Of a stretch of DNA of 32,000 bases, positions 2,339-24,204 are shown piece after piece. A model generated the notes under the pieces. That model ran no database searches and had not been told where the DNA came from. It worked only from the letters and a program-made list of their open reading frames with translations. Within the stretch, counting starts at the first letter, position 1. Each line of letters begins with the position of its first letter. This stretch comes from Rhodobacter capsulatus SB 1003. GTDB lineage: Bacteria; Pseudomonadota; Alphaproteobacteria; Rhodobacterales; Rhodobacteraceae. Both the position numbers and the translations under genes were made by a program. The stretch spans positions 3,540,001 to 3,572,000 of the forward strand of contig NC_014034.1 of NCBI RefSeq assembly GCF_000021865.1, written 5' to 3'.

Positions 2339-3388
2339 TCAGATCTCGACCGCCACCTTGCCCGAAGGCCGCGAGCAGCAGGCGAGGATATAGCCCGCGG
2401 CGATATCGTCCTCGGAAATCCCGCCATTGTGCAGCATCTGCACCTCGCCCGCGGTTTTCTTCACCTTGCAGGTGCCGCAAAGGCCGAAGTTGCAGCCCGA
2501 GGGGATGTTCAGCCCCGCCCGTTTCGCCGCCGCCAGAACGGTTTCGCCCGGCGCGCAGGCGGTGCTGACCCCCGAGGCGGTGAAACGGATCTCGGCGGCC
2601 TCCGATGCCTCGGGCAGCGCTTCGGGCGCGGTCTCGGGCGGGCCGAAGCTTTCCTGATGATAGCGATTCATGTCGAAGCCCAGCGCCGCAAGGCTGTCCT
2701 TGACCCCGCGCATGAAGGGCTCGGGACCGCAGCAGAACACCTCGCGCTCCAGATAATCGGGCGCCATCAGCCCCAGCATGATCTGGTTCAGACGGCCGCG
2801 AAAGCCGTGCCAGACGCTGAAGGGCTCGACCTCCTCGACCGTGAAGCGCAGCTGCAAGCCGGGCACCCGCGCCGCGAATTGCTCGAGCCGCGGCCGGAAG
2901 ATGATGTCCGAGGGCCGCCGCGCCGCATGGACAAAGACGATATCGGGCATCTCGCCGCTGTCCCAGGCCCAGGTCGTCATCGACATCATCGGCGTGATCC
3001 CCGAGCCCGCCGAGATCAACAGATATTTCCGCGCCGGATGGCGGCGCAGGCTGAACTCGCCCGCGGGGCCGTGTGCCCGCAGCCGCATCCCCGGTTTCAG
3101 CTGCTCGATCAGCCAGCGCGAGCCCACCGACCCGGGCTGCGCCTTCACCGTCACCGAGAGCGACAAGGGCCGCGAGGGCGAGGAGGAGATCGTATAGGTC
3201 CGGCTGACCGGCTGACCCGGCACCGGCAGATCCAGCGTCAGGAACTGCCCGGGCAGGTAGTCGAACCACGCGCCCGAAGGCGCGCGGAAGGTGATCGTGG
3301 CGGTATCGGCGGTTTCGGGCACCACCATCGCGCATTCCAGCGGCTCGGCATCGCTCCATGGCGCGCTGGCCCAGTTGATCCGGTCCAT
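2339..3388 (-). CDS. FNR-type flavin/NAD(P)H reductase with C-terminal plant-type 2Fe-2S ferredoxin domain (GbcB-like oxygenase reductase)
   Basis: RTYTISSSP flavin motif, LLISAGSGITPMMSM nucleotide-binding motif, and a C-terminal CNFGLCGTC...C cluster motif. It starts 3 nt after the Rieske gene stop, with a GGAG RBS. Confidence 0.8.
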   Translation of the reverse strand: MDRINWASAPWSDAEPLECAMVVPETADTATITFRAPSGAWFDYLPGQFLTLDLPVPGQPVSRTYTISSSPSRPLSLSVTVKAQPGSVGSRWLIEQLKPGMRLRAHGPAGEFSLRRHPARKYLLISAGSGITPMMSMTTWAWDSGEMPDIVFVHAARRPSDIIFRPRLEQFAARVPGLQLRFTVEEVEPFSVWHGFRGRLNQIMLGLMAPDYLEREVFCCGPEPFMRGVKDSLAALGFDMNRYHQESFGPPETAPEALPEASEAAEIRFTASGVSTACAPGETVLAAAKRAGLNIPSGCNFGLCGTCKVKKTAGEVQMLHNGGISEDDIAAGYILACCSRPSGKVAVEI

Positions 3389-3391
3389 CGC

Positions 3392-4627
3392 TCACTCCGC
3401 CGCCAGCGGCGGGGCCAGCCGCGCATCCAATGTGCCGCAATACCAGTCGACGAACTGGATCACGCCCTCTTCCTGCAGCGTCGAATAGGGGCCGGGCTCA
3501 TAGGCGGGGGACAGAATCCCGGCCTGATTTTCCTCGACCACCTGCCGGTCCTCGTCATTCGTCGCCATCCAGACCTCGGTCAACTCGGTCAGGTCGTAAT
3601 CCACCCCCTCGACCGCATCGCCGGGGACAAGCCAGGTCGTCGTCACCTCGGTCTCGGTGGCCGAGATCGGCAGCACCCGGAAGACGATCGCATGATCGGC
3701 CAGGAAATGGTTCCAGGTGTTCGGATAATGGAAGAAAAGCAGGCTTCCGGCATCGTTGAAGGGCATCTCGCCCAGCCGTTTGCCCCGCACCGCGGCCTTG
3801 GTGCTCATGGTGTAGCTTTCAGCGCCGTTCAGCAGCGGAATGCGGGCCAGCCGCCATTGCATCTGCGGATGATGCACGAAGCGCGAGGGCAGACCCGCCG
3901 CCTCGCAGCGCGTCCAATGCGCCAGAATATCGGGGCTCGCCGCCTCGGGGCCCTCCATCGCGGTCATGCGCGGATTGTCGGAATAGGTCCGGCAGAGCGA
4001 GGGATGCGAGCCGCCGCAGTGATAGCATTCGCGGTTGTTCTCGATCACCAGCTTCCAGTTGCCCTTCTCGACGATGGTCGAGACATGGGCAACGCGCGCC
4101 TGTTTCAGCCCGGCAGGCGCCAGATAGCGGCCCAGCGTGCCCGCCAGATCGGCGATCGCGGGCGGCACCTCGGCCAGACAGATGAAGACCATGCCGCCGA
4201 TATCGACGCAATGGACCTTTTTCAGCCCATGCGCGGCGGGGTTGAAATCTTCCTGCATGTCCTTGGCCCAGAGCAGTTTTCCGTCCAGGTCATAGGTCCA
4301 TTGGTGATAGGGGCAGACAAGCTTCGGGCTGTTGCCCGTGGTCTTGGCGCAAAGCCGCTGGCCGCGATGGCGGCAGACGTTGTGAAAGGCGCGGATCATC
4401 CCGTCGGCGCCGCGCACCAGGATCACCGGATAGGCGCCCACCTGCAACGTCGCGTAATCGCCGGGCTTGACGAGCTGGCAGGCGGGAATGGCAAACAGCC
4501 ATTCGCGGTAAAAGACCTGCGTCAGATCGGTCTGAAAGATCCCCGGATCGCAATAAAAGGGTTGCGGCAGGGAATGGTCATTGCGCCGTGCGGCAAGCTG
4601 CGCACGGATGTCGGATGCGTCTGGCAT
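3392..4627 (-). CDS. Rieske 2Fe-2S non-heme-iron oxygenase alpha subunit (GbcA/Stc2-like N-demethylase class); substrate unknown
   Basis: Rieske motif CRHRG...CPYHQW and mononuclear-iron region ENNRECYHCGGSHP. I prefer ATG 4627 (GAGG 5 nt upstream). GTG 4633 is the alternative given in the ORF track. Confidence 0.8.
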   Translation of the reverse strand: MPDASDIRAQLAARRNDHSLPQPFYCDPGIFQTDLTQVFYREWLFAIPACQLVKPGDYATLQVGAYPVILVRGADGMIRAFHNVCRHRGQRLCAKTTGNSPKLVCPYHQWTYDLDGKLLWAKDMQEDFNPAAHGLKKVHCVDIGGMVFICLAEVPPAIADLAGTLGRYLAPAGLKQARVAHVSTIVEKGNWKLVIENNRECYHCGGSHPSLCRTYSDNPRMTAMEGPEAASPDILAHWTRCEAAGLPSRFVHHPQMQWRLARIPLLNGAESYTMSTKAAVRGKRLGEMPFNDAGSLLFFHYPNTWNHFLADHAIVFRVLPISATETEVTTTWLVPGDAVEGVDYDLTELTEVWMATNDEDRQVVEENQAGILSPAYEPGPYSTLQEEGVIQFVDWYCGTLDARLAPPLAAE

Positions 4628-4689
4628 CGGCACCTCACTTGCCCCTGCCTCCCCGCAAGGGCTGGTTGGATGGATGGGCCCGGGGGCCC

Positions 4690-4865
4690 GGCGGTCACAG
4701 GGCTGGTTTCCGGGCTTGCAATGCGTGCTTTCGCACCCGGGCGCAGCGCCTTCCCGAACCCCGGGGTCCAGTGGCCTTGCCGTCCCTCATTGCTGACCGT
4801 TGCGGGGGCAGCGCCGGTCTTGCACCGGCTTCCCAATTCTCCCGGCCTTGCGGACGGGCACCCTG
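4690..4865 (-). promoter_or_regulatory. cobalamin (AdoCbl-type) riboswitch upstream of the Rieske oxygenase operon
   Basis: Minus strand reads GGGAAGCCGGTGCAAGACCGGCGCTGCCCCCGCAACGGTCAGCA...GGCCACTGGACCCCGGGGTTCGGGAAGGCG...GCAAGCCCGGAAACCAGCC. The core, the GCCACTG element and a slightly variant B12 box are all present. The expression platform runs to the RBS at about 4634. Confidence 0.85.
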
Positions 4866-4888
4866 AGGCCTTCAGACTGACAGATTGT

Positions 4889-4926
4889 CGCAGAGGGCGC
4901 GTGCCAAAAACGACGCGCCGTCTGCG
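4889..4926 (-). terminator. GC-rich hairpin just after the metH stop (possible terminator)
   Basis: Stems 4889-4894/4921-4926 and 4896-4902/4913-4919 with a 10-nt loop. No U-tract follows, so it is not a canonical intrinsic terminator. Confidence 0.35.
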
Positions 4927-4939
4927 CTTTCAGACAGGA

Positions 4940-7662
<2,723 letters not shown>

Positions 7663-7666
<4 letters not shown>

Positions 7667-8700
7667 GGCAGGGCCCTCGGCGGGAAAGGTTTCACGGCTT
7701 CCGCGATGGCGCGGATGTGATCGGGGGTGGTGCCGCAGCAACCGCCCACGACATTGACCAGCCCTTCGCGGGCAAATTCGGCCACCTGCGCGGCGGTCCG
7801 GTCGGGGGTTTCGTCATATTGGCCAAAGGCATTGGGCAGCCCGGCATTGGGATAGGCGCAGATCGCGCAGGGGGCGACGCCCGCCAGTTCCGCCAGATGC
7901 GGACGCATCGCACTGGCGCCCAGCGCGCAGTTCAGCCCCACGGTAAAGGGCCGGGCATGAGCCACCGAATGCCAGAACGCGGTCGGCGTCTGCCCCGACA
8001 ATGTGCGCCCCGAGGCATCGGTGATCGTGCCGGAAATCATCACCGGCAGCCGCTCGCCCCGTTCGGCAAAGGCTTCGAAACAGGCGAAAATCGCCGCCTT
8101 GGCGTTCAGCGTGTCAAAGATCGTCTCGATCAGCAGGATATCGGCGCCCCCCGCGATCAGACCGCGCACCTGCTGGCCATAGGCCGTGCGCAGATCGTCG
8201 AAGGTGACGGCGCGAAAGCCCGGGTCGTTCACATCGGGCGAGAGCGAGGCGGTGCGGTTCGTCGGCCCCACCGCCCCCGCAACGAAGCGGCGCCGTCCGT
8301 CGGTGGCCTCGGCGCGGTCCATCGCCGCCCGCGCCACCCGCGCCCCCGCGGCGTTCAGGTCGAACACCGCGCTTTCCAGCCCGTAATCGGCCTGCGCGAT
8401 GGTGGTGGCCGAAAAGGTGTTCGTCTCGACGATATCCGCCCCCGCCATCGCATAGCGGAAATGGATCTCCTCGATCGCTTGCGGCTGGGTCAGCACCAGC
8501 AGGTCGTTGTTGCCCTTTTGCGGATGATCGGTGGCATGGCGGCAGGCGCAGCCCGAGCCGTGGCCCAGAAAATCGTCCTCGCTCAGGCCAAGCTGCTGGA
8601 TCTGCGTGCCCATCGCCCCGTCAAGGATCAAGATCCGCTGGCGCGAAAGCGCCTCAATTGCGGCAAAGGCCGCAGATCGGGGCAGGGTCTGGGTCAGCAT
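7663..8700 (-). CDS. metH: methionine synthase, homocysteine-binding (S-methyltransferase) domain as a separate ORF
   Basis: [13 protein letters not shown] and [11 protein letters not shown] (Zn/Hcy domain). ATG 8700 is preceded by GAGGGAG. The ORF ends in the linker that is continuous in fused MetH proteins. Confidence 0.85.
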
Positions 8701-8809: not shown

Positions 8810-10264
8810 CTACCGCGCCAGATCCAGAAGCGCATCAAGGTCCAGATCGGCTTCGATTTCCGCAGCAAAAGCATCAAGGGCGGCCCCGATCCGGGCATCA
8901 TGGTCCTGCACGGCGGCGGTGACGCCCAGCTGCGCCAGCCAATGGCCGCGAAAGCCCGCGGCGCCGAAAATCCCGTGCAGATAGCTGCCCATCACCTTGC
9001 CATCGGCAGAGATCGCCCCCTCGGGCCGCCCGTCAAGGGTCAGCCACGGCCGCGCCAGATCGGGGCCGAAGCTCTCGCCCATATGCATCTCGTAGCCCTG
9101 CACGCGGGCACCGCTGAGGCTGTCCCGCGCGTCGATCCTGGCCAGCCGTTTCCTTGGCCCGATCATCGTTTCCAGATCGAGAAGCCCCAGCCCCGGGGTT
9201 TCGCCGGGCGGGCCCTCGATCCCCTCCGGGTCGCGCACGACGCGGCCAAGCATCTGAAACCCCGCGCAAATACCCACGACGCGCCCGCCCCGGCGCAGAT
9301 GCGCGCGGATATCGATGTCCCAGCCCTCGGCGCGCAGCGCGATGAGCGCGGCCCGGGTGGCCTTGGAGCCGGGCAGGATCACCACCGCCGCCTCGGCCGG
9401 GATCGGCTGACCGGGGCGGACCCAGCGCAGATCGACGCCCGGCTCGGCCGCCAGCGGGTCGAGATCGTCGAAATTCGCCACCCGCGGCAGGTCGGGCACC
9501 GCCACGACAAGCGCCCCCGCCGTGCCGCGCTTGCGCGCGACCCCGAGCGAGTCTTCCTCGGGCAGGCGCCTTGCCGCCTCGGACCAGCGCATCAGCCCCA
9601 GCACCGGCCAGCCGGTCTCGGCGCGGATATCGGCGGCGGCGGGGGCAAAGATCGCCGGATCGCCGCGGAATTTCGTCACGATCACGCCGCCCACCCGGGC
9701 GCGTTCGGAAGCGGTCCAAAGGTGATGATGCCCGATCACCGCCGCCGTCACCCCGCCGCGCGATTCGTCGCCCAGAAGCAGCACCGGCAGATCCGCGGCC
9801 TCGGCCAGACCCATGTTCGAAATGTCCTGCGGGCGCAGGTAGCGTTCGGCGCCGCTGCCCGCCCCCTCGATCAGCACCAGATCATGGCTGGCCGAGAGGT
9901 GATCCAGGCTCTCGATCACCTGCCCCCGCAGGCCGGGTTTCAGCGCCTGATAGTCGGCGGCGGAAAAGCGGCCCAAAACCTGCCCCTGCACCACCACCTG
10001 CGCATCGACATCGCTGTCGGGCTTGAGCAGAACCGGGTTCATGTGGACGGACAGGGGAACCCCCGCCGCCCGCGCCTGCAACGCCTGCGCCCGGCCGATC
10101 TCGCCGCCATCCGCCGTCACCGCCGCGTTGTTCGACATGTTCTGCGCCTTGAAGGGCGCCACCTTCAGGCCGCGCCGGGTGAAGGCCCGCGCCAGCCCCG
10201 CGACGAACAGGCTTTTCCCCACATCCGAGCCGGTGCCCAGCACCATCAGCCGCCGCGCCGTCAT
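8810..10264 (-). CDS. cobQ: cobyric acid synthase (copy 1, canonical N-terminus)
   Basis: MTARRLMVLGTGSDVGKS N-terminal ATPase domain. C-terminal GATase1 domain with GICAGFQMLG and YLHGIFG. The start overlaps the upstream paralog's stop as ATGA. Confidence 0.9.
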   Translation of the reverse strand: MTARRLMVLGTGSDVGKSLFVAGLARAFTRRGLKVAPFKAQNMSNNAAVTADGGEIGRAQALQARAAGVPLSVHMNPVLLKPDSDVDAQVVVQGQVLGRFSAADYQALKPGLRGQVIESLDHLSASHDLVLIEGAGSGAERYLRPQDISNMGLAEAADLPVLLLGDESRGGVTAAVIGHHHLWTASERARVGGVIVTKFRGDPAIFAPAAADIRAETGWPVLGLMRWSEAARRLPEEDSLGVARKRGTAGALVVAVPDLPRVANFDDLDPLAAEPGVDLRWVRPGQPIPAEAAVVILPGSKATRAALIALRAEGWDIDIRAHLRRGGRVVGICAGFQMLGRVVRDPEGIEGPPGETPGLGLLDLETMIGPRKRLARIDARDSLSGARVQGYEMHMGESFGPDLARPWLTLDGRPEGAISADGKVMGSYLHGIFGAAGFRGHWLAQLGVTAAVQDHDARIGAALDAFAAEIEADLDLDALLDLAR

Positions 10265-11835
10265 TTCGCCAGCGCCAGCAGCGCGTCCAGATCGAGGTCC
10301 TGCTCCAGCTGATCGGCCAGAGCGTCAAGCGTCGTCTCGATCTGCGCGGCGTGATCGAGGCCCGAGGCCCGCCCGCCCATCGCGGTGATCCAATGGCCGC
10401 GAAAGCCGTCGGCGCCAAAAAGCCCGTGCAGATAGGTCCCCATCACCCGGCCATCATGCGACACCGCCCCCTCGGGGCGGCCGTCAAGCCGGAACCACGG
10501 CTGCGCAAGCCCCGGCCCGGTGGTGCGGCCCATATGCATCTCGTAGCCCGTCAGACCGTGACCGCTGACCGCATCGGTCGCCTGCACCTCGGTCAGCATC
10601 TTGTCGCGCGTCATCACGGTTTCCAGATCGAGCAGCCCCAGCCCCTCGGTCTCGCCCGCCGGGCCCTCGATCCCTTCGGGATCGCGCACGACATGGCCAA
10701 GCATCTGAAACCCCGCGCAAATCCCGACAACGCGGCCGCCGCGGCGCAGATGCGCGCGGATGTCCACATCCCAGCCCTGCGCGCGCAGCGTGGCCAGCGC
10801 GGCGCGGGTGGTTTTTGATCCCGGCAACAGCACCACATCGGCCTCGGGCGGGATCGGCTGGCCATGGCGGACCCAGCGCAGATCGACGCCCGGCTCGGCG
10901 CCCAGGGGATCAAGGTCGTCGAAATTCGCCACGCCATCGAGATGCGGCACGGCGACGATCAGCCCCGCGCCGTTGCCCGTCGCGGGACGCTCCAGCGCCA
11001 GCGCATCCTCGGCCGGCAGCTGCCCCGCCGCCTCGAACCAGCGCGCGACGCCCAGGAAGGGCCAGCCGGTGATCTCGGTCATGGTCCGGCAGGCCGGTTC
11101 GTAAAGCGAGAAATAGCCGCGGAACTTGTTGACCAGAATACCTTTCACCCGCGCCCGCTCGGCGTCGTCATGCAGCATCCAGCTGCCGACGACAGCGGCC
11201 AGCGCCCCGCCGCGGTCGTTGTCGGTCAGCAGAACCACCGGCAGATCGGCCTCTTCGGCCAGACGCATGTTGGTGATGTCGCAATGCTTGATCCAGGTCT
11301 CGGTCGCCGCCCCCGCGCCTTCGACCAGCACCAGATCGGCCTCGGCGGCGACGCGGCGGTAGCTGTCCATCACCGCGGGCAGCAGGAAGGGTTTCAGATG
11401 GTGGTAATGCCGCGCGGGCCAGTTGCCCAGCGCCCGGCCGCGCAGCACCACCTGCGAGCCGACCAGCGCCTGCGGCTTGAGCAGAACCGGGTTCATGTGG
11501 ATCGAGGGCGCCACCCCGGCGGCGCGGGCCTGCAGCGCCTGTGCCCGGCCGATCTCGCCGCGCCGGGGCTGGCCGTCGGGGCCGGGGGGCAGGTCGCTGT
11601 CCACGGTGACGGCGGCATTGTTCGACATGTTCTGCGCCTTGAACGGCGCCACCTTCAGCCCGCGCCTTGCATAGGCGCGGGCCAGCCCGGCAACGAGCAG
11701 GCTTTTGCCGACATCGGAACTGGTGCCCTGGATCATCAGCGCCCGGCCGCGCCGCGGCGGCGGCGGGGTCAGCAACGGCAGGTCAAGATCGGGCAGCGGC
11801 GGCACCGGATCGTGGTCGGGAAGCGAGAGGGTCAT
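10261..11835 (-). CDS. cobQ: cobyric acid synthase paralog (copy 2) with Pro-rich N-terminal extension and an internal insertion
   Basis: MIQGTSSDVGKS, GICAGFQMLG and YLHGLFG are retained. Start ATG 11835 is tentative; TTG about 11775 or ATG 11736 are possible. The 622-aa track ORF start is rejected. Confidence 0.8.
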   Translation of the reverse strand: MTLSLPDHDPVPPLPDLDLPLLTPPPPRRGRALMIQGTSSDVGKSLLVAGLARAYARRGLKVAPFKAQNMSNNAAVTVDSDLPPGPDGQPRRGEIGRAQALQARAAGVAPSIHMNPVLLKPQALVGSQVVLRGRALGNWPARHYHHLKPFLLPAVMDSYRRVAAEADLVLVEGAGAATETWIKHCDITNMRLAEEADLPVVLLTDNDRGGALAAVVGSWMLHDDAERARVKGILVNKFRGYFSLYEPACRTMTEITGWPFLGVARWFEAAGQLPAEDALALERPATGNGAGLIVAVPHLDGVANFDDLDPLGAEPGVDLRWVRHGQPIPPEADVVLLPGSKTTRAALATLRAQGWDVDIRAHLRRGGRVVGICAGFQMLGHVVRDPEGIEGPAGETEGLGLLDLETVMTRDKMLTEVQATDAVSGHGLTGYEMHMGRTTGPGLAQPWFRLDGRPEGAVSHDGRVMGTYLHGLFGADGFRGHWITAMGGRASGLDHAAQIETTLDALADQLEQDLDLDALLALAK

Positions 11836-11905
11836 GGCAGCATCCGTTCGGTCGGCAGGCAAGGACGGCGCCGGGGCAGCCCCGGCACCGGAAGGTTCGG
11901 CGGGA

Positions 11906-12253: not shown

Positions 12254-12437
12254 GGCGAAGCCCCCCGGGCAACGGACGGCGCCGATGCGCCGGAAAAGGG
12301 CCGCGCCGGGCCCCGGGGAAGGTCTTGTCTTTCGGCACCATACCGTTCCTTTGGCAGTGGGCCGGAAAGCGGTAAGGGGACAGGCCCCGGACAGACCGGG
12401 GCACCCTGCCTCCGGGCCCGCCGCCCGGGATGGTTTC

Positions 12438-12590
12438 GGCCTGGCAGGTCTCCTGGCTTGCGGCTCGAACGCCCCTTGCGCCTTCCCGATCCTGCGATCA
12501 GTGGCCGTGCTCGGGGCTTGCCGCTTACAGTTGCGGGGGCAGCGCCGGACTTGCACCGGCTTCCCTCTTCGTCCGCGGGATCAGCCGCGG
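12438..12590 (-). promoter_or_regulatory. cobalamin riboswitch upstream of DUF1636-cobQ-cobQ
   Basis: Minus strand reads GAGGGAAGCCGGTGCAAGTCCGGCGCTGCCCCCGCAACTGTAAGCGG...GGCCACTGATCGCAGGATCGGGAAGGCG...GCAAGCCAGGAGACCTGCC, with a consensus B12 box. Confidence 0.92.
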
Positions 12591-12724
12591 AACCAAGGCC
12601 CGGGCAAGATGACCCCACGCCGCGCCACTGTCAACGGTCCGCGACGAAAGCCGCCTGCGGCGAAAACCGCGGACGACGGAAGCCGATTGACGCGGGCGGC
12701 GGCGGCTGGCACAACCAAGGCGGG

Positions 12725-12892
12725 ATTGGTTCCCCGTTCATGCGGGGATGAAAAGGGAATGCGGTGCGCCGAACGGCAAACCCGCAGCTGCCCCCGCAAC
12801 TGTAAGCGGCGAGCGACGGTCGAAGATGCCACTGGGGATGCCCCGGGAAGGCCGACCCGAGCCCGGACCCGCAAGCCAGGAGACCTGCCACC
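12725..12892 (+). promoter_or_regulatory. cobalamin riboswitch upstream of the DUF4198-like gene
   Basis: AAAAGGGAATGCGGTG...CCCGCAGCTGCCCCCGCAACTGTAAGCGG...ATGCCACTGGGGATGCCCCGGGAAGGCCGAC...GCAAGCCAGGAGACCTGCC. Confidence 0.92.
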
Positions 12893-13043: not shown

Positions 13044-13940
13044 ATGTTCTTGCACGGAAACCTGATGGCCGCCGCCCGCGCGCTGCTGTCGATCCCCCGC
13101 CCCGCCACGCCGGGGCTGATGGCGCATCTGCCCGAGACGGGCGGCGTCCTGACCCTTGCCCTCGGCGATCCTTTGGGCGGCGGCGCGGTGCTTGACCTTG
13201 CCGCGCCGCTTGCGGTGTTTCACCAGCACGGCGCCCGCCGCACCGATCTGACCTCCGGGCTGACGGCGGATCTGCTGCAGGGCGCGGGCAATGCCGCGCG
13301 CGCCTGGCGGACCCGGGTCGATCTGTCGGCGCCGGGGCTGCACCGGATCCACGCCGAGGCCCCGGTCGGGCGCGATCCCGAGGGCCGCGGGCTGGTGCAG
13401 CATGCGGCCGCCTGTTTCGTCCTGCGCGGCGCCGCGACCGCCACCCCCGAGCCGCTTGGCCTCGCCGTCGAGATCCTGCCCGACCTGCTCTCGCCCGGGT
13501 TCCTGCCCGGGATGCGGTTTTCGGCGCGGGTGCTGGCGCAGGGGCATCCGCTGACGGCGACGACGGTGCATCTGGAACGGGTCGGGGCGGAACCCGTCGG
13601 CACGCAGGTGCAAGCCCTGCCCGACCACGGGGCGCCGCTCTGGATCGTCGCCGAAACCGACCGCGAGGGCCGGTTCCGGGTCTCGCTGCCCGCGCCCGGG
13701 CTTTGGGCGATCACCGCGACGGGGCCGATCGGCTGGTCCGGGCTGCGGCCGGTGCGACATGTCACCACGCTTTGGCAGCGCTTCGGCAGCCCGGGCCAGG
13801 GCACGGGAAAGGAGAGCGAAGCCCTTGCAATGGCTTGGGAAACCGCCGCCGTCCGGCCCCCTCACCGCGAAGCCGCCGTGCCGGGGGAGGTCGCCCCGGT
13901 GCCGGCGCCCGAACCGCGGCCGCGGGAAAGCACCGCTTGA
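13044..13940 (+). CDS. DUF4198-like protein (family linked to TonB-dependent Ni/Co uptake), function unknown
   Basis: ATG 13044 follows GGAAGGAAA. The pattern LGLAVEILPD...GMRFSARVLAQGHPL...ETDREGRFRVSLPAPGLWAITA matches the Ig-like DUF4198 architecture. The tail is Pro/Glu-rich and the signal peptide is weak. Confidence 0.55.
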   Translation: MFLHGNLMAAARALLSIPRPATPGLMAHLPETGGVLTLALGDPLGGGAVLDLAAPLAVFHQHGARRTDLTSGLTADLLQGAGNAARAWRTRVDLSAPGLHRIHAEAPVGRDPEGRGLVQHAAACFVLRGAATATPEPLGLAVEILPDLLSPGFLPGMRFSARVLAQGHPLTATTVHLERVGAEPVGTQVQALPDHGAPLWIVAETDREGRFRVSLPAPGLWAITATGPIGWSGLRPVRHVTTLWQRFGSPGQGTGKESEALAMAWETAAVRPPHREAAVPGEVAPVPAPEPRPRESTA

Positions 13941-13959
13941 CCTGCGGGGGGATTTCGTC

Positions 13960-14140
13960 TTGGTTGTGTCCCGTCCAAGTTCCGGCCTGCGGGTCGGATT
14001 GAAAGGGAACACGGAACGGCCCCCGGGCCCAGACCGTGGCTGCCCCCGCAACTGTGAGCGGCGAGCGACGTCGACATGCCACTGGGATTTCCCGGGAAGG
14101 CCGACGAAGCGAAGACCCGTGAGCCAGGAGACCTGCTTGG
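13960..14140 (+). promoter_or_regulatory. cobalamin riboswitch upstream of btuB
   Basis: TTGAAAGGGAACACGG...GTGGCTGCCCCCGCAACTGTGAGCGG...ATGCCACTGGGATTTCCCGGGAAGGCCGAC...GTGAGCCAGGAGACCTGC. Confidence 0.92.
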
Positions 14141-14279
14141 ACGATCACCCACCCGGGCGCGAGGGGCGCCACGGGAGCGGTCTGTCCGCAGAGGTGAGCT
14201 GTCGCCGTCTGCGGAAAGCCCAGCTTTTCCGTGACATCTCTCATGCCGGGCCGTCTTGCCCGAACCGAAGGTCTGTCCG

Positions 14280-16130
14280 ATGCCGCCTCTGTCGCGTCTT
14301 GCCCTGCTCTCTGCCGCTTTCGCCTCTGCCGCCGCCCCCGCGCTGGCGCAGGAGGAGATCACCGATCTGGACACGATTTCCGTCACCGCCTCCTCCGAGC
14401 CGGTCAAGCTCAGCCGCACCGGCGCGACCGTCACCGTCGTCACCGCCGAAGAGATCGAAAAGGCGCCGCTCGGCTTTGCCGATTACCTCTCCACCCTGCC
14501 CGGCATCACGCTGAGCGCGAACGGCGGGCTGGGCACCCAGACCTCGCTGCGGGTGCGCGGCCTGCCCGCCTATTACCTGGGCACCCGGATCGACGGCATC
14601 AACGTCACCGATGCCGCGAACCCGCAGGTGTCCTATTCCTTCGGCGGGCTGACCACCGCGGGCCTGTCGCGCATCGAGGTGCTGCGCGGCGCGCAATCGG
14701 CGCTTTACGGCTCAGAGGCGGTGGCGGGGGTGATCGACATCACCAGCTGGCGCCCCGAGACCGAGGGCAGCTCGGGCCAGGTCGCGCTTGAGGCGGGGTC
14801 GCGGGACACCCGCAGCGGCAGCGCCTCGGTCGGGCTGAAGACGGACCGGACCGAACTGGCGCTGACCGCCAGCCGCACCGTGACCGATGGCATCTCGGCC
14901 TATGCGCTGGGCACCGAGAAAGACGGGTTCAACGGCACGCAGATCAACGCCTCTGCCCGCCATGCGCTGACCGAAAGCCTGACGATCGGGGCGGCGGCGC
15001 TCGTGCAGGATACCTCTGTCGCCTTTGACAACACCGGCGCCGATGCCGACAACCGGTCCGACAGCCGCCTGCGCGGCGGGCGGGTCTTTGCGCAATTCGA
15101 CACCGGCGCGGTCTGGCACGAGCTGTCGCTGGCCCGCGCCCGCACCGAACGCGATGTCCACGAATACGGCAGCGACACCCATTTCCTTTCCGACCGCGAC
15201 ACCCTTGCCTATGCCGGTCGCTGGTCGGCGCGGGACACGCTGTCGCTGAACTGGGGCCTTGAACACGGAAAGGACGATTTCTCCGTCGCCTCGTCCTGGT
15301 CCACCACGGCGAACGGCATCCGCACCACCGCCGCCTTTGCCGAGGCGCTCTGGTCGCCGCGCGCCGATCTGGACCTGTCGTTTGCGCTGCGCCACGACGA
15401 TCACAATCTTTTTGGCGGCCATGACAGCGGCCGTCTGGCGCTGGCCTGGCGCCCGGATGCCGACTGGGTCCTGCGCGCCGTCGCCGCCACCGGCTTCCGC
15501 GCCCCCTCGCCCTATGAACTCTGGAGCAGCTACGGCAAGCCGACCTTCCAGCCCGAAACCAGCCGCAGCTTCGAAATCGGCGCCGAGCGGATGCTGGCGG
15601 GCGGCTCGATCTCGGCGACGCTGTTTGACACCCGGGTCGAGGATCAGATCACCTTCGACAGCAACACCTTTACCTATGTGCAGCAGGCCGGGACCACGAA
15701 AAGCAAGGGGATCGAGCTGGCGGGCAAGGCCGCGATCGGGGCGAACTGGTCGCTGTTCGGCGCCTATGCCTATACCGACGTGACGGTGCGGGAGGGCACG
15801 GCCGAACGGCGCGGGGCCCGGTCGCCGCGGCACAATCTGACGCTCGGTGTCGATGGCCGGATCGGCGCGCGGCTCGACGCCCGGTTCAGCGTCACCCATG
15901 TGGCCGGTCTGTGGGATGAATACGTGGATTATTCCAGCTTCCCCTATGCGACGATGCAGCAGAAGATGTCGGATTACACGGTGGCGACGCTGTCGATGTC
16001 CTATGCGCTGACCGAGACCGCCGAGGCCACCCTGCGGGTCGAGAACCTGTTCGACGAAAGCTATCAGACCGCGCGGAACTTCGGTCAGCCGGGACGGTCG
16101 CTTTACCTCGGGGTCCGCACCAAATTCTGA
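14280..16130 (+). CDS. btuB: TonB-dependent outer-membrane cobalamin receptor
   Basis: Signal peptide MPPLSRLALLSAAFASAAAPALA, TonB box DTISVTA, plug and beta-barrel motifs, and a C-terminal ...LYLGVRTKF. The riboswitch lies upstream. ATG 14280 follows GAAGG. Confidence 0.88.
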   Translation: MPPLSRLALLSAAFASAAAPALAQEEITDLDTISVTASSEPVKLSRTGATVTVVTAEEIEKAPLGFADYLSTLPGITLSANGGLGTQTSLRVRGLPAYYLGTRIDGINVTDAANPQVSYSFGGLTTAGLSRIEVLRGAQSALYGSEAVAGVIDITSWRPETEGSSGQVALEAGSRDTRSGSASVGLKTDRTELALTASRTVTDGISAYALGTEKDGFNGTQINASARHALTESLTIGAAALVQDTSVAFDNTGADADNRSDSRLRGGRVFAQFDTGAVWHELSLARARTERDVHEYGSDTHFLSDRDTLAYAGRWSARDTLSLNWGLEHGKDDFSVASSWSTTANGIRTTAAFAEALWSPRADLDLSFALRHDDHNLFGGHDSGRLALAWRPDADWVLRAVAATGFRAPSPYELWSSYGKPTFQPETSRSFEIGAERMLAGGSISATLFDTRVEDQITFDSNTFTYVQQAGTTKSKGIELAGKAAIGANWSLFGAYAYTDVTVREGTAERRGARSPRHNLTLGVDGRIGARLDARFSVTHVAGLWDEYVDYSSFPYATMQQKMSDYTVATLSMSYALTETAEATLRVENLFDESYQTARNFGQPGRSLYLGVRTKF

Positions 16131-16136
16131 CGGTGC

Positions 16137-16167
16137 CGCGCCGGAGGCGGGCCCTCCGGCGCGTTTT
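16137..16167 (+). terminator. intrinsic terminator/attenuator between btuB and btuF
   Basis: An 11-bp stem (16137-16147/16153-16163) with a 5-nt loop, followed by TTTT (16164-16167). Confidence 0.6.
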
Positions 16168-16180
16168 GGAATGGAATGAG

Positions 16181-17038
16181 ATGACGGCGCAGCCAGCCCC
16201 CTTGCCGATCCGCCCGCCCGCCCGGCGGCGCCAGCGCCTTTGGGCCGCGGGGTTGGCGCTGCTCTCGGCGCTGGCGCTGCCCGCTGCGGCGGCGCCCGCC
16301 CGTGTCGTCTCGATCAACCTGTGCACCGATCAGCTGGCGATGATGCTGGCCGCGCCGGGGCAGCTTGTGTCGGTCACCCGTCTGGCCCGCGATCCCGCCG
16401 CCTCGGTGATGGCCGAAGCCGCAAGGGCTTATCCCGCGAACCGCGGTCAGGCCGAAGAGGTCTATCTGCTGCATCCCGATCTGGTGCTGGCCGGGCGTTA
16501 TACCGCGCAGCCGACGGTGGCGATGCTGCGCCGCCTTGGCATTCCGGTGGCGGTCTTCGAGCCCGCCGACAGCTTTGCCGACATGCAGGCCGATATCGCC
16601 CGGATGGGTGCCTTGCTGGGCCGCGAGCCCGAGGCCGCCGCGATGGCCGGCGCTTTCGCCGCAAGGCTGGCGCGGATCCGCGCGGCAAGCCTGCCCGGGC
16701 CGCGGCCGCTCGCCGCCACCTGGTCGGCGCAGGGCTACATGTCGGGCCATCAAAGCCTGGCGGGCGAAATCCTGACCACCGCCGGCTTTGACAGTTTGGC
16801 CGCGCGGATGGGGCGGGCGCAGGGCAGCACCCTGCCGCTCGAGGCGCTGGTTCTGGCCGATCCCGATCTGGTGGTGACCGGGCGGATCGGCCCCGGGTCG
16901 TCGCGCGCCGAGGCACCGCTGACCCATCCGGCCCTGCGCGCGCTGACCGGCCGCCGCGCCGCCGTGGAAGACCGCGACTGGATCTGCGGCCTGCCTTCGG
17001 TTCTCGATGCCACCGAACGGCTTGGGGGAATGAAATGA
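16181..17038 (+). CDS. btuF: periplasmic corrinoid/siderophore-type ABC substrate-binding protein
   Basis: Twin-arginine-like leader ARRRQRLWAAGLALLSALALPAAAA. Cluster-8 (BtuF/FhuD-type) SBP sequence (RVVSINLCTDQL, DLVL). The start was chosen downstream of the terminator hairpin. Confidence 0.75.
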   Translation: MTAQPAPLPIRPPARRRQRLWAAGLALLSALALPAAAAPARVVSINLCTDQLAMMLAAPGQLVSVTRLARDPAASVMAEAARAYPANRGQAEEVYLLHPDLVLAGRYTAQPTVAMLRRLGIPVAVFEPADSFADMQADIARMGALLGREPEAAAMAGAFAARLARIRAASLPGPRPLAATWSAQGYMSGHQSLAGEILTTAGFDSLAARMGRAQGSTLPLEALVLADPDLVVTGRIGPGSSRAEAPLTHPALRALTGRRAAVEDRDWICGLPSVLDATERLGGMK

Positions 17039-18018
17039 CCGAAAGACCGCTGCACATCGGGCTTGGGATGGCGCTGGTCGCGCTGTTTGTCGCCTCGCTG
17101 CTGACCGGCGTGGCCGAGGTGGCGCCGCTGACCGCGCTCAGGGCGCTTCTCACCGGGGGCGAGGGGCCTTTGGGCCTTGTGATGCGGGAAATCCGGCTGC
17201 CGCGGGCGATCCTGGCCGCGATGGTGGGGGCAAGCCTTGGGCTTTCGGGCGCGGCGATGCAGGGGCTGTTGCGCAACCCGATGGCGGAACCCGGGGTGAT
17301 CGGCATTTCCGCCGCGGCGGCGCTGGGGGCGGTGATCGCGCTGCAGACCGGGCTTGCCGCCAGCTTCGCGCTGGCGCTGCCGCTGGCGGCGCTGCTGGGC
17401 GCGCTGATCGGCGTCGGTGCGATCCTGTTTCTGGCCGGGCGCGGCGGCACGCTGGCGCTGATCCTGGCGGGGATCGCGCTTTCGGCGCTGGCCTCGGCGC
17501 TGACCTCGCTGGTGCTCAACCTCTCGCCCAATCCCTTTGCCGCGCAGGATATCGTGTTCTGGATGATGGGGTCGCTGGCCGATTGTTCCTTTACCCATGT
17601 CGCGATCGCCGCGCCCTTCATGGCGGCGGGCGGCCTGCTTCTGGCCCGCACCGGCCGCGGCCTTGACGCGCTGACGCTCGGCGAGGAGGCCGCCGCCTCG
17701 ATGGGCATCGACCTGACCCGGCTGCGGCTGGCGGTGATCCTGGGCACGGCGGCTTCGGTGGGGGCGGCGACGGCGGTGGCGGGGACGGTCGGTTTCGTCG
17801 GCCTTGTCGTGCCGCATCTGCTGCGCCCCCTTGTCGGCGCCAGCCCGGCGCGGCTTTTGCCCGCGGCGGCCTTGGGCGGCGCGGTGCTGGTGCTGATCGC
17901 CGATATCGCGGTGCGCAAGGTGCTGCCGGGGCAGGATCTGAAGCTGGGCGTTCTGATGGCGCTGGTCGGCGCGCCGGTGTTCCTGAACCTGATCTGGCGG
18001 ATGCGAGGCCAGCCATGA
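17035..18018 (+). CDS. btuC: FecCD-family ABC permease
   Basis: Polytopic membrane protein with FecCD/BtuC-like sequence. ATGA overlap with btuF. Confidence 0.85.
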   Translation: MTERPLHIGLGMALVALFVASLLTGVAEVAPLTALRALLTGGEGPLGLVMREIRLPRAILAAMVGASLGLSGAAMQGLLRNPMAEPGVIGISAAAALGAVIALQTGLAASFALALPLAALLGALIGVGAILFLAGRGGTLALILAGIALSALASALTSLVLNLSPNPFAAQDIVFWMMGSLADCSFTHVAIAAPFMAAGGLLLARTGRGLDALTLGEEAAASMGIDLTRLRLAVILGTAASVGAATAVAGTVGFVGLVVPHLLRPLVGASPARLLPAAALGGAVLVLIADIAVRKVLPGQDLKLGVLMALVGAPVFLNLIWRMRGQP

Positions 18019-18749
18019 GCCTGATGCGACTGGACAATCTGACGGTGCAGCGGGGCGGGCGGGTCAGCCTGCATCCGGCCAGCCTGCAGGCGGCCCCGGG
18101 CGAGTTCATCGGCCTGATCGGTCCGAACGGCGCGGGGAAATCGACGCTTCTGCGCGCGGCACTGGGGCTGATCGCGGCGCGGGGCCAATCCTCGCTGGCG
18201 CAGCTGTCGCCGCGCGCCCGCGCCCGCGCCGCCGCCTGGCTGCCGCAGCAGCGCGAGATCGCCTGGGGGCTGCGCGTCGCGGCGCTGGTGGCGCTGGCGC
18301 AAAACGGGCGCGAGGATGCGCCGCAGGTCGCCGCCGCCCTGGCGCGGATGGATGTGACGGCGCTGGCGCAGCGCCCGGCCACGGCGCTTTCGGGCGGCGA
18401 ACAGGCGCGGGTGCTGATCGCCCGGGCGCTGGCGCAGGACACTCCACTTCTCTTGGCCGACGAGCCGATCGCGGGCCTTGACCCGGCGCATCAGATCGCC
18501 TGCATGGCGCTTTTCGCCAGCCTTGCCGCCGAGGGCCGCACGGTGATCGCCTCGGCGCATGATCTGGGGCTGGCGGCGCGGCATTGCACCCGGCTTTGGG
18601 TGCTGCATCAGGGCCGGATCGTTGCCGACGGCCCGCCGCGCGCCGTGCTGACCCCCGCGCTTTTGCGCGAGGTCTTCGCCATCCGCTGCCATCTGGCCGA
18701 GGCCGAGGGCGGGCTGATCGTGCAACCTCTGGCCGGGCTTGCGCCATGA
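18015..18749 (+). CDS. btuD: ABC transporter ATPase
   Basis: Walker A GPNGAGKST, signature LSGGEQ, Walker B LLLADEP. ATGA overlap with btuC. Confidence 0.85.
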   Translation: MSLMRLDNLTVQRGGRVSLHPASLQAAPGEFIGLIGPNGAGKSTLLRAALGLIAARGQSSLAQLSPRARARAAAWLPQQREIAWGLRVAALVALAQNGREDAPQVAAALARMDVTALAQRPATALSGGEQARVLIARALAQDTPLLLADEPIAGLDPAHQIACMALFASLAAEGRTVIASAHDLGLAARHCTRLWVLHQGRIVADGPPRAVLTPALLREVFAIRCHLAEAEGGLIVQPLAGLAP

Positions 18750-19585: not shown

Positions 19586-19648
19586 CTTTCAAAATTGAGG
19601 CCGCGGCGGATTTGCGATCCCCTGACCGCGACAGCCAAGAGGATCGCC

Positions 19649-20596
19649 ATGCACAGCACAGCCCAAGACCTTTATACCCTGCCGCTGATGGATCTTCTGT
19701 TCCGGGCGCAAAGCGTGCACCGGCAGAATTTCGACCCCAACCGCATCCAATGCGCCAAGCTTCTGTCGATCAAGACCGGCGGCTGCGGCGAGGATTGCGC
19801 CTATTGCGCGCAATCGCGGCGCAACGGCGCGACGCTGCCCGCCGCGAAGCTGCTGGAGGTGCAGAAGGTTCTGGCCGAGGCGCAAAAGGCCAAGGAGGCG
19901 GGGGCCACCCGCTATTGCATGGGCGCGGCCTGGCGCTCGCCCAAGGACCGCGACATGCCCGCGGTGCTGGCGATGGTCGAGGGGGTGAAGGCGCTCGGTC
20001 TGGAAACCTGCATGACGCTGGGCATGCTGGATGACAGGCAGGTGCGGCAGCTGAAGGCCGCGGGGCTGGATTACTACAACCACAATATCGATACGTCGGA
20101 GCGGTTCTACCCTTCGGTGATCTCCACCCACAGCTTTGCCGACCGGCTGGAGACGCTCGACCGCGTCCGCGCGGCGGGGATCAATGTCTGTTCGGGCGGG
20201 ATCGTCGGCATGGGCGAGACGGCCGATGACCGCATCAGCATGATCCAGACACTGGCCGATCTGCCCGAGCCGCCGCAATCGGTCCCGATCAACATGCTGA
20301 TGCCGATGGCCGACACGCCCCTGGCCGATGCCGCGCCGCTCGACCCGATCGAGATGGTCCGCACCATCGCCACCGCCCGCATCCTGATGCCGAAATCCTA
20401 CGTGCGGCTTTCCGCCGGGCGCAGCGCGATGTCGGATGAATTGCAGGCGATGTGCTTCTTTGCCGGGGCGAATTCGATCTTTGTCGGCGACACGCTGCTG
20501 ACCGCCGAAAACCCCGATGACAGCGCCGATGCCCGGCTTTTCGCCAAGCTCGGCCTGCGCCCCGAGGCGCCGCGGCCCTGCGGGGATGCGGCATGA
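19649..20596 (+). CDS. bioB: biotin synthase
   Basis: Radical-SAM motif [11 protein letters not shown] and YNHNIDT. ATG 19649 follows AAGAGGA. Confidence 0.92.
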
Positions 20597-21726
20597 GCCG
20601 GTATCCCCGTCATGCCGCGCGTCTGGCCCGGCTGGCCGAACGCGGGCGGGCGCGGGCGCTGACCCCGGCACGGGGGCTTGATTTCGCCTCGAACGATTAC
20701 CTTGGCCTGCGGGCCTCGGCGGATCTGGCGCAGGCGGTGGCCGAGGCGCTGGCGCGCGGGGTTGCGGTGGGGGCGGGCGGATCGCGGCTTCTGCGCGGCA
20801 ATGACCCGGAATTTGGCGCGCTGGAGCAAGAGGCCGCCGGTTTTTTCGGTGCCGAGGCCTGTCTTTTCATGGGCGGCGGGTTTCAGGCCAATCAGGCGGT
20901 CTCTTGCGACGCTGCCGATGGCGGGGATCTGGTGCTGCATGACGTGCTGATCCATGCCAGCGCGCATGAGGGGCTGCGGCTGGGCTCGGCCGAGGCACGC
21001 AGCTTTCGCCACAATGACGCGCAGGATGCCGCCGATCAGATCCGGCTCTGGCGGGCGGCGGGCGAGCGCGGCCGGGTCTGGATCGCGCTTGAGACGCTGT
21101 ATTCGATGGAGGGCGATTTCGCCCCCGTGGACGATTTCGTCGCCCTTGCGCGGCGCGAAGATGCGGTGCTGATTTTGGACGAGGCGCATGCGACCGGGCT
21201 TTACGGCCGCGACGGGCGCGGTCTGGCCCCCGAGGCGGGCGATCTGGCGCTGATCGTCGTGCATACCTGCGGCAAGGCCCTGGGCGCGGGCGGGGCGCTG
21301 ATCTGTGCCGATCGGGCGGTGATCGAGACGCTGGTGAACCGCGCCCGGCCCTTCCTCTATGCCACCGCGCCCTCGCCCCTGCTGGCGGCGGCGGTGCGGG
21401 CGGCCTTGCGGCTTTTGCCCGCGCGACCCGGGCTGCGCGCCCATGCGGCGGCGCTGCGGGCACGGGCGCGGCACCGTGCGGCGCAGATCGGCTGGGAGGC
21501 CGGGCAAAGCCAGATCCTGCCGCTGATCCTGGGCACGGATGCCGCCGCGTTGCAGGCCGCGCAGGCGCTGCACCAAGCGGGGTTCGATCTGCGCGCCATC
21601 CGTCCGCCGACCGTGCCCAAGGGCACGGCGCGGCTGCGGCTTTCGCTGACCGGCGGGCTGCAGGTGCCGGATATCGACGCGCTCTTCGACGCGCTGGCCA
21701 GCCTGCGGATCGGGGGGCTGCGATGA
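20593..21726 (+). CDS. bioF: 8-amino-7-oxononanoate synthase
   Basis: FASNDYLGL, and PLP-lysine context [12 protein letters not shown] overlap with bioB. Confidence 0.88.
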
Positions 21727-22340
21727 CCTCTGCCTTGGTGATCACCGGCACCGATACCGGCGTCGGCAAGACCGTCTTCAGCGCCGGGCTGACGCTGGCC
21801 CTGCAGGCGACCTATTGGAAACCGGTTCAGGCCGGGCTGGAGGAAGAGACCGACCGCGAGACGGTGGCGCGGCTGACCGGCTGCCCGACCCTGCCCGAGG
21901 CCTATCGGCTGCGCAGCCCGGCCTCGCCGCATCTTGCCGCGGCGCGGGACGGGGTCGAGATCGCGCCGATGCCCCTGCCCGATCTGCCCGGCCCGCTGGT
22001 GATCGAGGCGGCGGGCGGCGCGCTGGTGCCGCTGGAAGGGCGCAGGCTTTACGCCGATCAGATGGCGGACTGGCAGGCGCCGGTGATCGTGGTGGCGCGC
22101 ACGGCGCTTGGCACGATCAACCACAGCCTTTTGACGATCGAGGCGCTGCGCGCCCGCCGCGTGCCGGTGCTGGGCCTGGCTTTCATCGGTGCGGAGGTCC
22201 GCGACAGTCAGGACACGATCTGCCGTCTGGCCGGTCTGCCCTCGCTTGGCCGTCTGCCGCAGCTGCCCGATCTGAGCCGCGCGACGCTGGCCGCGGCCTT
22301 TCGCGGCATCGACCTGACGACGATCCGGGGGGCGCTGTGA
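21723..22340 (+). CDS. bioD: dethiobiotin synthetase
   Basis: P-loop ITGTDTGVGKT. ATGA overlap with bioF. Confidence 0.88.
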   Translation: MTSALVITGTDTGVGKTVFSAGLTLALQATYWKPVQAGLEEETDRETVARLTGCPTLPEAYRLRSPASPHLAAARDGVEIAPMPLPDLPGPLVIEAAGGALVPLEGRRLYADQMADWQAPVIVVARTALGTINHSLLTIEALRARRVPVLGLAFIGAEVRDSQDTICRLAGLPSLGRLPQLPDLSRATLAAAFRGIDLTTIRGAL

Positions 22341-23608: not shown

Positions 23609-24204
23609 TGCGGGCAGACTGGTTGCAGCGGCGGGGCAGCGCGGATCTGATCCTGGTCTTTGCGGGCTGGGCGGTGGGGCTTGATCCGTTTCGGCATCTG
23701 AGCGGCGCGGCGGATGTTCTGGTGCTCTCGGATTATCGCGACGAGACCCTGCCCGAGGCGCTTTGGGCGCCCGGCAAGCGCCTGAGTGTCGTCGCCTATT
23801 CGATGGGCGTCGCCGTCGCCGCCCGGCATCTGCCGCGGCTGCGGCCCAAGCGGGCCGTAGCGATCTGCGGCGCCCCCGATCCGCGCGCGGTGATCGGCCC
23901 GGCGATCTATGACGCCACCCTTGCCGGGCTGAGCCCGCAAAGCCTTGGGCAATTTTCCCGCCGCGCCGGGGCCGCCGTCCCGCCCGGGGCCGAGATCCCC
24001 GCGCTGGCCGCCGAACTTCGCGCGCTGGCCGGCCGCCCGGCCGCCCCCGCCCCGGCCTTTGACCGCATCCTTGCCGCGACCGGAGACCGCATCTTTCCCC
24101 GGGCCGCGATGGCCGCTGCCTGGCCAGGCGCCGAGATCGACTGGATCGCGGGCGGCCACAGCCCCTTTGCGCGCTGGCGCGACTGGCAGGAGATCACCGG
24201 ATGA
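23608..24204 (+). CDS. bioG: pimeloyl-ACP methyl ester esterase, DUF452/BioG type
   Basis: 198 aa. LILVFAGW, nucleophile elbow VAYSMGV, and later GDRIFP and GGHSPF give a Ser/Asp/His triad. It sits between bioA and bioC. Confidence 0.65.
   Translation: MRADWLQRRGSADLILVFAGWAVGLDPFRHLSGAADVLVLSDYRDETLPEALWAPGKRLSVVAYSMGVAVAARHLPRLRPKRAVAICGAPDPRAVIGPAIYDATLAGLSPQSLGQFSRRAGAAVPPGAEIPALAAELRALAGRPAAPAPAFDRILAATGDRIFPRAAMAAAWPGAEIDWIAGGHSPFARWRDWQEITG

Follow-up and report, generated by a model that had tools for sequence, protein, structure and literature searches.

What does a cobalamin riboswitch control when it stands ahead of the genes for a Rieske oxygenase and its reductase? This question is raised by a locus of Rhodobacter capsulatus SB 1003 (contig NC_014034.1, positions 3,540,001 to 3,572,000; the whole stretch of 32,000 nucleotides that was analysed is called the window hereafter). 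Based on our observations, we suggest that the riboswitch probably silences, when vitamin B12 is available, an oxygenase that serves as a backup for corrinoid-dependent betaine demethylation. The argument is built on the following features, given in window coordinates.

4684..4880, minus strand: complete aptamer of a cobalamin riboswitch (RF00174), P6 extension included (cmscan)
4803..4808, minus strand: aptamer loop L5, CCCCCG (sequence, and consensus structure line of cmscan)
4769..4775, minus strand: GCCACTG element of the P6 extension (sequence; aligns with GCCACUG of the model)
4701..4719, minus strand: B12 box in the variant form GCAAGCCCGGAAACCAGCC (sequence)
4641..4662, minus strand: P13-like hairpin with an 8-bp stem and the loop GGGGAG at 4649-4654 (minimum free energy (MFE) and centroid folds)
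4625..4672, minus strand: span holding the Shine-Dalgarno sequence GAGG (4633-4636) and the ATG (4625-4627) (sequence)
3392..4627, minus strand: Rieske non-heme-iron oxygenase subunit of 411 aa, Stc2/HpbB/'GbcA' betaine N-demethylase family (Pfam Rieske and Ring_hydroxyl_A)
2339..3388, minus strand: FNR-type FAD/NAD(P)H reductase of 349 aa with a C-terminal 2Fe-2S ferredoxin domain, GbcB/HpbC-like (Pfam FAD_binding_6, NAD_binding_1 and Fer2)

The original prediction, made from the sequence alone, had placed a complete cobalamin aptamer at 4690-4865 on the minus strand and had named a covariance search with RF00174 as a check. The search is significant, as cmscan of the whole window with Rfam gave 102.8 bits against a gathering score of 31.5 (E = 6.5e-25), covering positions 1-189 of the 189 in the model, and the predicted interval falls inside the match. 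All of the core elements, namely the GGGAA junction, GCCCCCGC (L5), GCCACUG and the B12 box, were found in the sequence and in the cmscan alignment. The motifs named beforehand (GCCACTG, the B12 box, GAGG, ATG, CRHRG...CPYHQW and ENNRECYHCGGSHP) were likewise located at or near their predicted positions, the last two within the open reading frame (ORF) of the oxygenase at 3392-4627. The aptamer lies between the stop codon of metH2 and the oxygenase gene, directly upstream of the latter and on the same strand, and is thus placed to control the Rieske/reductase pair, as had been proposed. The two members of the pair are separated by 3 nt, counted from the oxygenase stop to the start of the reductase ORF, and both the ORFs and the Pfam domains agree with their description as a Rieske oxygenase followed by an FNR/2Fe-2S reductase. 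The aptamer was present in all 8 of the R. capsulatus contigs fetched by the exact protein, with identical nhmmer score and length.

A scan of 4550-5100 detected no intrinsic terminator between the aptamer and the ATG, and no sigma-70-like promoter was found in the same interval. The P13-like hairpin is kept across ten leaders of clade B, to which the R. capsulatus enzyme belongs, as a 7-bp stem with compensatory changes in 3 of its 7 pairs. Its loop starts with GGG(G) in every leader aligned (GGGGAG, GGGAAG, GGGGGT etc.; n = 10) and this start complements CCCCC, which is invariant in L5; its 3' end is found 4-6 nt ahead of the Shine-Dalgarno sequence (4 nt in the window). In the MFE fold of the window leader the P13 helix is extended by pairing of CAUC (4669-4672) to GGUG (4631-4634), the latter being part of the Shine-Dalgarno region. 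The leader of Phaeobacter inhibens also has a G-looped hairpin ahead of its Shine-Dalgarno sequence. Cobalamin riboswitches are known to stabilise a kissing interaction between L5 and L13 that occludes the ribosome binding site. Because of this known kissing, the lack of a terminator and the covarying G-looped hairpin next to the Shine-Dalgarno sequence, translational repression appears to be the most likely mode of control, and L5 is predicted to pair with L13 and to bring about sequestration of the ribosome binding site. Bound cobalamin would stabilise the kissing contact of the C-rich L5 loop with the G-rich loop of the P13 hairpin; as this hairpin ends 4 nt from the Shine-Dalgarno sequence, the ribosome binding site would be kept sequestered. 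When free cobalamin is plentiful, the riboswitch would therefore repress translation of the two-gene operon.

The linkage is not confined to R. capsulatus. Our comparison set comprised 80 homologous loci from species-representative genomes (oxygenase 56-83% identical; 13-21 kb viewed per genome), which were scanned with nhmmer profiles built from the window aptamers and then from the matches themselves, and checked against Rfam cmscan. An alignment of the four window aptamers made with MAFFT for a covariance model was dropped, as the GCCACTG region was misaligned. A cobalamin riboswitch stands directly upstream and on the same strand in 30 of the 80 loci (74-170 bits), which argues that its linkage to the gene is not due to chance. 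The remaining 50 loci gave nothing beyond noise by nhmmer (<=5 bits, E >= 0.5), and all seven of the nhmmer-negative loci re-tested by Rfam cmscan were negative again; one further positive was obtained by cmscan, in a metagenome-assembled genome (MAG) of Cereibacter sphaeroides (L090, 116 bits). None of the 17 Paracoccus loci has the riboswitch. A reductase homologue follows the oxygenase gene in 76 of the 80 loci, and across the whole set no broadly conserved neighbours beyond this pair were found. In 5 riboswitch-positive loci the pair is adjoined by nrdE, encoding a B12-independent ribonucleotide reductase; genes for a FMN/NAD oxidoreductase (with a domain architecture like that of N-methylproline demethylase) and for a LysR regulator occur mostly at riboswitch-negative loci.

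The gbcA-linked riboswitches appear, from their sequences, to form one subtype and a single lineage that spans several protein clades (at least four). Their B12 box is a variant, CCGGAAACCAGCC or CCGGA(A/T/C)ACCAGCC, present in 32 of 33 of them and represented by GCCCGGAAACCAGCC in the R. capsulatus aptamer, whereas 12 of the 14 other cobalamin riboswitches of these loci have CAGGAGACCTGCC, exactly or with one base changed. An extension on the 3' side with the motif CGCGGGTGGCGG was found in 25/33 of the gbcA-linked riboswitches versus 0/14 of the others. The P. inhibens leader (L094:7699-7898) displays the complete set, i.e. the B12-box variant, the 3' extension, the element CAUCCAUCC and the G-looped hairpin; the R. 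capsulatus leader shares all of these except the 3' extension motif, of which it is devoid.

At the same time the switch is evolutionarily labile, with remnants or loss in close Rhodobacter relatives. In Rhodobacter sp. TJ_12 (protein 87% identical) a remnant of 31.8 bits comprises only the 5' half of the aptamer (L093:7762-7937). The scan found no aptamer in MAG SZUA-611 (81%; L009:5641-6000), yet metH1-metH2 is kept upstream, and there is no riboswitch at the locus in R. lacus (88%) or R. xanthinilyticus (83%). In both of the decayed leaders that were aligned (TJ_12 and SZUA-611), the Shine-Dalgarno sequence and the distal hairpin with its G-rich loop are still in place.

As for the enzyme itself, its assignment to the betaine N-demethylase family is firm. 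The oxygenase has the same sequence as ADE87075.1 of R. capsulatus SB 1003, and many further genomes of the species encode an identical protein. The GbcA and GbcB models are the best NCBIfam matches of the pair, over full length. The nearest solved structures of the oxygenase are PDB 3N0Q (586 bits), which we take to come from Ruegeria sp. TM1040, and the stachydrine demethylase Stc2 (3VCA, 540 bits). Residues C85, H87, C105, H108, H203, H208 and D358/D360, corresponding to the Rieske ligands and to the His/His/Asp of the mononuclear iron, are invariant among 13 orthologues. In a neighbour-joining tree the protein falls into a Rhodobacter/Gemmobacter/Cereibacter/Paracoccus clade, apart from the roseobacter and Stc2 clades, and it is 74% identical to the copy of a Paracoccus denitrificans MAG. 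The GbcA of P. inhibens could be recognised among the compared proteins as P0162, as its N-terminus, MLHDSEIL, agrees with the deletion primer of the preprint discussed below. Genetic studies of P. denitrificans show that the specificities of Stc2/Hpb/GbcA enzymes overlap: HpbB1C1 and HpbB2C2 act on proline betaine, and HpbB2C2 and Pden_4897-4896 on glycine betaine.

A direct precedent exists. Hammer et al. (December 2025, bioRxiv 10.64898/2025.12.19.695462) reported that P. inhibens has both a corrinoid-dependent glycine betaine demethylase, MtgBCD, and the Rieske enzyme GbcAB. According to the mutant phenotypes given there, gbcAB is needed on glycine betaine only under cobalt limitation (ΔgbcAB), and the ΔmtgB1 strain is defective when cobalt is replete. 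The same authors described a cobalamin riboswitch in the 5' untranslated region of gbcAB and proposed that it blocks translation. Table S3 of the preprint lists for R. capsulatus A12 gbcA (+), gbcB (++) and the cobalamin riboswitch (+), as well as mtgB1, mtgC, mtgD and mtgE (+), metH1 and metH2 (+) and no metE. The genomes without mtgBCD in that table are four, all Paracoccus, and they have gbcAB and lack the riboswitch; among the five Paracoccus genomes, 4/5 are without mtgBCD and 5/5 without the riboswitch.

The view that the gene pair is not a recognised member of the B12 regulon can therefore not be upheld, since the preprint describes the arrangement and tabulates R. capsulatus. As the arrangement, its rationale and the entry for the species were already available, the value of the locus is confirmatory. 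What is added here is the single lineage of the riboswitch, the examples of its decay, the covarying platform hairpin and the caveat that the enzyme differs from canonical GbcA. An operon for a dioxygenase and a ferredoxin reductase under B12 control was reportedly named as a candidate, 'ardX-frdX', for alpha-proteobacteria by Rodionov et al. in 2003 (J Biol Chem). Text searches for older work on such an operon, which had Rodionov 2003 and Vitreschak 2003 outside their reach, gave nothing relevant.

These data lead to an explanation that we hold, with fair confidence, to be the best one: the oxygenase is a B12-repressed backup for corrinoid-dependent betaine demethylation. The product of the operon would be a Rieske enzyme that N-demethylates quaternary amines with the use of O2 and NAD(P)H. 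With B12 available, betaine would be demethylated via the corrinoid-dependent MtgB/MtgC/MtgD and the methyl group passed to tetrahydrofolate; with B12 or cobalt in short supply, the oxygenase would take over and the methyl group would leave as formaldehyde. This idea was put forward in the original prediction, and it is supported by the P. inhibens genetics, the gene content of strain A12 and the riboswitch-less Paracoccus; it is not new, as the preprint already contains it. We infer that the R. capsulatus RNA responds as in P. inhibens, that control is translational and that the substrate is glycine betaine.

The likeness to gbcAB of P. inhibens DSM 17395 (PGA1_c05010/05020) includes the order of riboswitch, Rieske oxygenase and FNR/Fer2 reductase, the riboswitch subtype with its B12-box variant, CAUCCAUCC and G-looped hairpin, and, per the preprint, mtgBCD in the genome. 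Unlike in P. inhibens, the R. capsulatus operon has a split metH directly upstream and no CGCGGGTGGCGG in its leader, and its oxygenase, only 61% identical, belongs to a different clade. The stachydrine demethylase Stc2 of Sinorhizobium meliloti (3VCA) and HpbB1C1/HpbB2C2 of P. denitrificans share the family and the two-component layout, and Paracoccus homologues are up to 74-75% identical to the window oxygenase; in contrast to R. capsulatus, the Stc2-clade loci and all Paracoccus loci are without the riboswitch, and some of the Stc2/Paracoccus-type loci adjoin FMN/NAD oxidoreductase or LysR genes, neither of which occurs in the window. With the canonical GbcAB/BmoAB of Pseudomonas aeruginosa and Chromohalobacter salexigens the pair has in common the predicted oxidative N-demethylation with release of formaldehyde; however, as judged by the scores below the cut-off, the window protein represents a sister group and not an equivalog.

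Upstream of the aptamer, two further features of the minus strand have to be considered.

4940..8700, minus strand: split B12-dependent methionine synthase, metH1 (~7663-8700) and metH2 (4940-7666) (NCBIfam, Pfam and gene calls in identical contigs)
~4887..4922, minus strand: GC-rich hairpin after the metH2 stop (centroid fold -22.7 kcal/mol, z = -1.65)

The homocysteine-methyltransferase gene metH1 and the gene for the pterin, B12 and activation domains, metH2, meet in an ATGA stop-start overlap. Split metH is upstream context and lies outside the regulated unit. The hairpin expected after the metH stop exists, although without a U-tract, and a pattern scan did not recognise it as a terminator. 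The position next to metH had been regarded as fitting the proposed role; metH does adjoin the oxygenase gene in the window, but this placement is rare, as metH1-metH2 was found there in 3/81 loci only (the window, L009 and L022, all of clade B). No mttB-family gene was identified among the annotated genes of the window, the whole genome not having been scanned.

Rfam cmscan detected four cobalamin riboswitches in the whole window. The other three are also full-length: one at 12426-12612 (minus strand, 130 bits) stands ahead of an ORF of 115 aa and a tandem pair of cobQ-like genes, one at 12727-12890 (plus strand, 127 bits) ahead of a DUF4198 gene (~13045-13941), and one at 13960-14154 (plus strand, 118 bits) ahead of a TonB-dependent B12-type receptor gene (14256-16130), with btuFCD-like genes (16133-18749) also behind it. 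The tandem CobQ (cobyric acid synthase) paralogues, at 8810-10264 and 10261-11836 on the minus strand, each match the full-length CobQ model with ~580 bits. They share their strand with split metH and directly precede it, at a distance of 67 nt if metH1 is taken as its longest ORF and of ~110 nt if it begins at the called start. If the cobQ paralogues and metH were co-transcribed, a leader repressed by B12 would precede a metH that depends on B12. The B12 uptake genes are adjoined by a biotin cluster at 19595-24929 (plus strand; bioB, bioF, bioD, bioC and one unassigned ORF). Outside the window, R. capsulatus has a cobalamin riboswitch-like nhmmer match of 81.8 bits (L001:20783-20915, minus strand) upstream of nrdD-nrdG, encoding the anaerobic ribonucleotide reductase, which would be another B12-independent enzyme of this species under B12 control. 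In the P. denitrificans MAG, a gene for an AraC/DJ-1-type regulator (L017:9518-10519, plus strand) lies 1.2 kb downstream of the riboswitch-less copy, and the regulator has the domain architecture of GbdR, known from Pseudomonas as a regulator that acts in glycine betaine metabolism. Near the same copy there is also a gene for a selenocysteine formate dehydrogenase, with a selenocysteine insertion sequence (SECIS) element.

Several points weigh against a B12-repressed backup for glycine betaine demethylation, and those concerning the enzyme bear at once on the alternative that the regulation is the same and the substrate another, i.e. proline betaine (stachydrine), hydroxyproline betaine or another quaternary amine, in which case the oxygenase would back up an MttB-family enzyme other than MtgB. 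On the NCBIfam GbcA model (NF058607/NF058606 pair) the oxygenase reaches 493.5 bits, below the cut-off of 670, and on the GbcB model the reductase reaches 380.8 bits, below 500, so that the earlier designation 'GbcAB-like' holds at the family level and fails for a GbcA equivalog. Ten other family members (Phaeobacter, Ruegeria, Paracoccus and Stc2-like copies) gave 460-518 bits on the GbcA model, and thus all those tested lie at 460-520 bits, under 670. The oxygenase, which forms part of a separate clade, is about as near to Stc2 (57% identity) as to P. inhibens GbcA (61%), and the latter is closer to Stc2 (66%) than to the window protein. The KEGG label of P. inhibens gbcA is stc2/hpbB, and, as mentioned above, P. 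denitrificans HpbB2C2 works on proline betaine and glycine betaine alike. On the other hand, the nearest genetically studied homologues, those of P. denitrificans and P. inhibens, have been implicated in glycine betaine oxidation, a GbdR-like regulator is encoded beside the 74%-identical P. denitrificans MAG copy, and neither hpbD, hpbA nor the LysR gene hpbR flanks the window gene. A different substrate therefore seems unlikely to us. Given the 61% identity to P. inhibens GbcA and the score below the equivalog cut-off, glycine betaine is treated here as the most likely substrate in R. capsulatus and not as an established one, proline betaine or a broader range being possible.

The other points against the B12-repressed backup concern the RNA. 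The action of the P. inhibens riboswitch was deduced in the preprint from growth curves and not from a reporter or binding assay. The fold energies of the platform are no better than those of shuffled sequences (z = +1.1 and +0.35), and as the z-scores of platform and whole leader are not significant at 70% G+C, thermodynamic stability is not counted here as evidence. The L13 loop of Phaeobacter sp. CECT 5382 is not G-rich, and the L5-L13 contact cannot covary, because L5 is invariant. Several mtgBCD-positive genomes of the preprint table, e.g. that of R. xanthinilyticus, carry the pair without the riboswitch, and the correlation of mtgBCD with the switch is therefore not strict. Read-through from metH may also occur, as the intervening hairpin has no U-tract; taken with the decay in close relatives (31.8 bits in TJ_12, nothing in SZUA-611, R. 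lacus and R. xanthinilyticus) and with the absence of a sigma-70-like promoter from 4550-5100, this could mean that the aptamer no longer functions or regulates only weakly, and that the operon is expressed mainly by metH read-through or from a bypass promoter. However, the R. capsulatus aptamer is intact in every core element and scores 102.8 bits, with no difference in score or length among the eight contigs, which makes this reading highly improbable. Moreover, in a metH read-through transcript the aptamer would still precede the ribosome binding site, and control of translation would not be lost. A second idea of the original prediction was that the enzyme is an oxygenase of aerobic corrin or lower-ligand synthesis, for instance a CobG-like hydroxylase. 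A BluB-like role would be another form of this idea, and the riboswitch would then provide ordinary feedback on the pathway. Such a role in cobalamin synthesis would suit a region rich in B12 genes (three more cobalamin riboswitches, two cobQ paralogues and btuB/btuFCD-like genes) and the adjacency of the gene to cbiMNQO and cobW in Rhodobacter sp. TJ_12, but we find it hardly credible, as domains, relatives and the P. inhibens mutant phenotype all speak against it. Pfam gives Rieske and Ring_hydroxyl_A only, and no CobG-type (sulfite/nitrite-reductase-like) or CobZ-type domains; the nearest solved structures are those of the betaine demethylase Stc2 and a Stc2 homologue; P. inhibens ΔgbcAB is normal on glucose and defective only on glycine betaine with cobalt limitation, and the P. 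inhibens gene is induced >300-fold by glycine betaine (log2 8.6). Furthermore, linkage to cob genes is not conserved over the 80 loci, and many B12 producers lack the gene, e.g. Ruegeria pomeroyi in the preprint table.

A wider suggestion, which is tentative and on balance doubtful, is that gating by a cobalamin riboswitch may go back a long way in the Stc2/Hpb/GbcA family as a whole, and not just in glycine betaine catabolism. If this is true, every clade with its own substrate preference (glycine betaine, proline betaine or others) would have a dedicated MttB-family corrinoid methyltransferase as its partner, and the clade-B enzyme of R. capsulatus could serve as the backup for demethylation of a compound other than glycine betaine. 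Losses of the corrinoid partner would then be mirrored in the repeated cases in which the switch decayed (TJ_12, SZUA-611, Paracoccus).

The control of the oxygenase by a B12-repressed switch resembles that of metE, nrdAB/nrdEF and nrdDG, in which a B12-independent alternative is off when B12 is present. Unlike in the metE and nrd cases, the duplicated function is catabolic (betaine demethylation) and not an essential biosynthesis. The rule that B12 riboswitches silence B12-independent isozymes would thus be extended from biosynthesis (metE, nrd) to a catabolic choice, between a corrinoid route that conserves the methyl group and an oxygenase route that releases it as formaldehyde. This choice would also tie the supply of cobalt and B12 to betaine turnover in Rhodobacterales, which are suppliers of B12 to algae. 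R. capsulatus, with its intact switch and with decayed switches in close relatives, constitutes a tractable genetic model.

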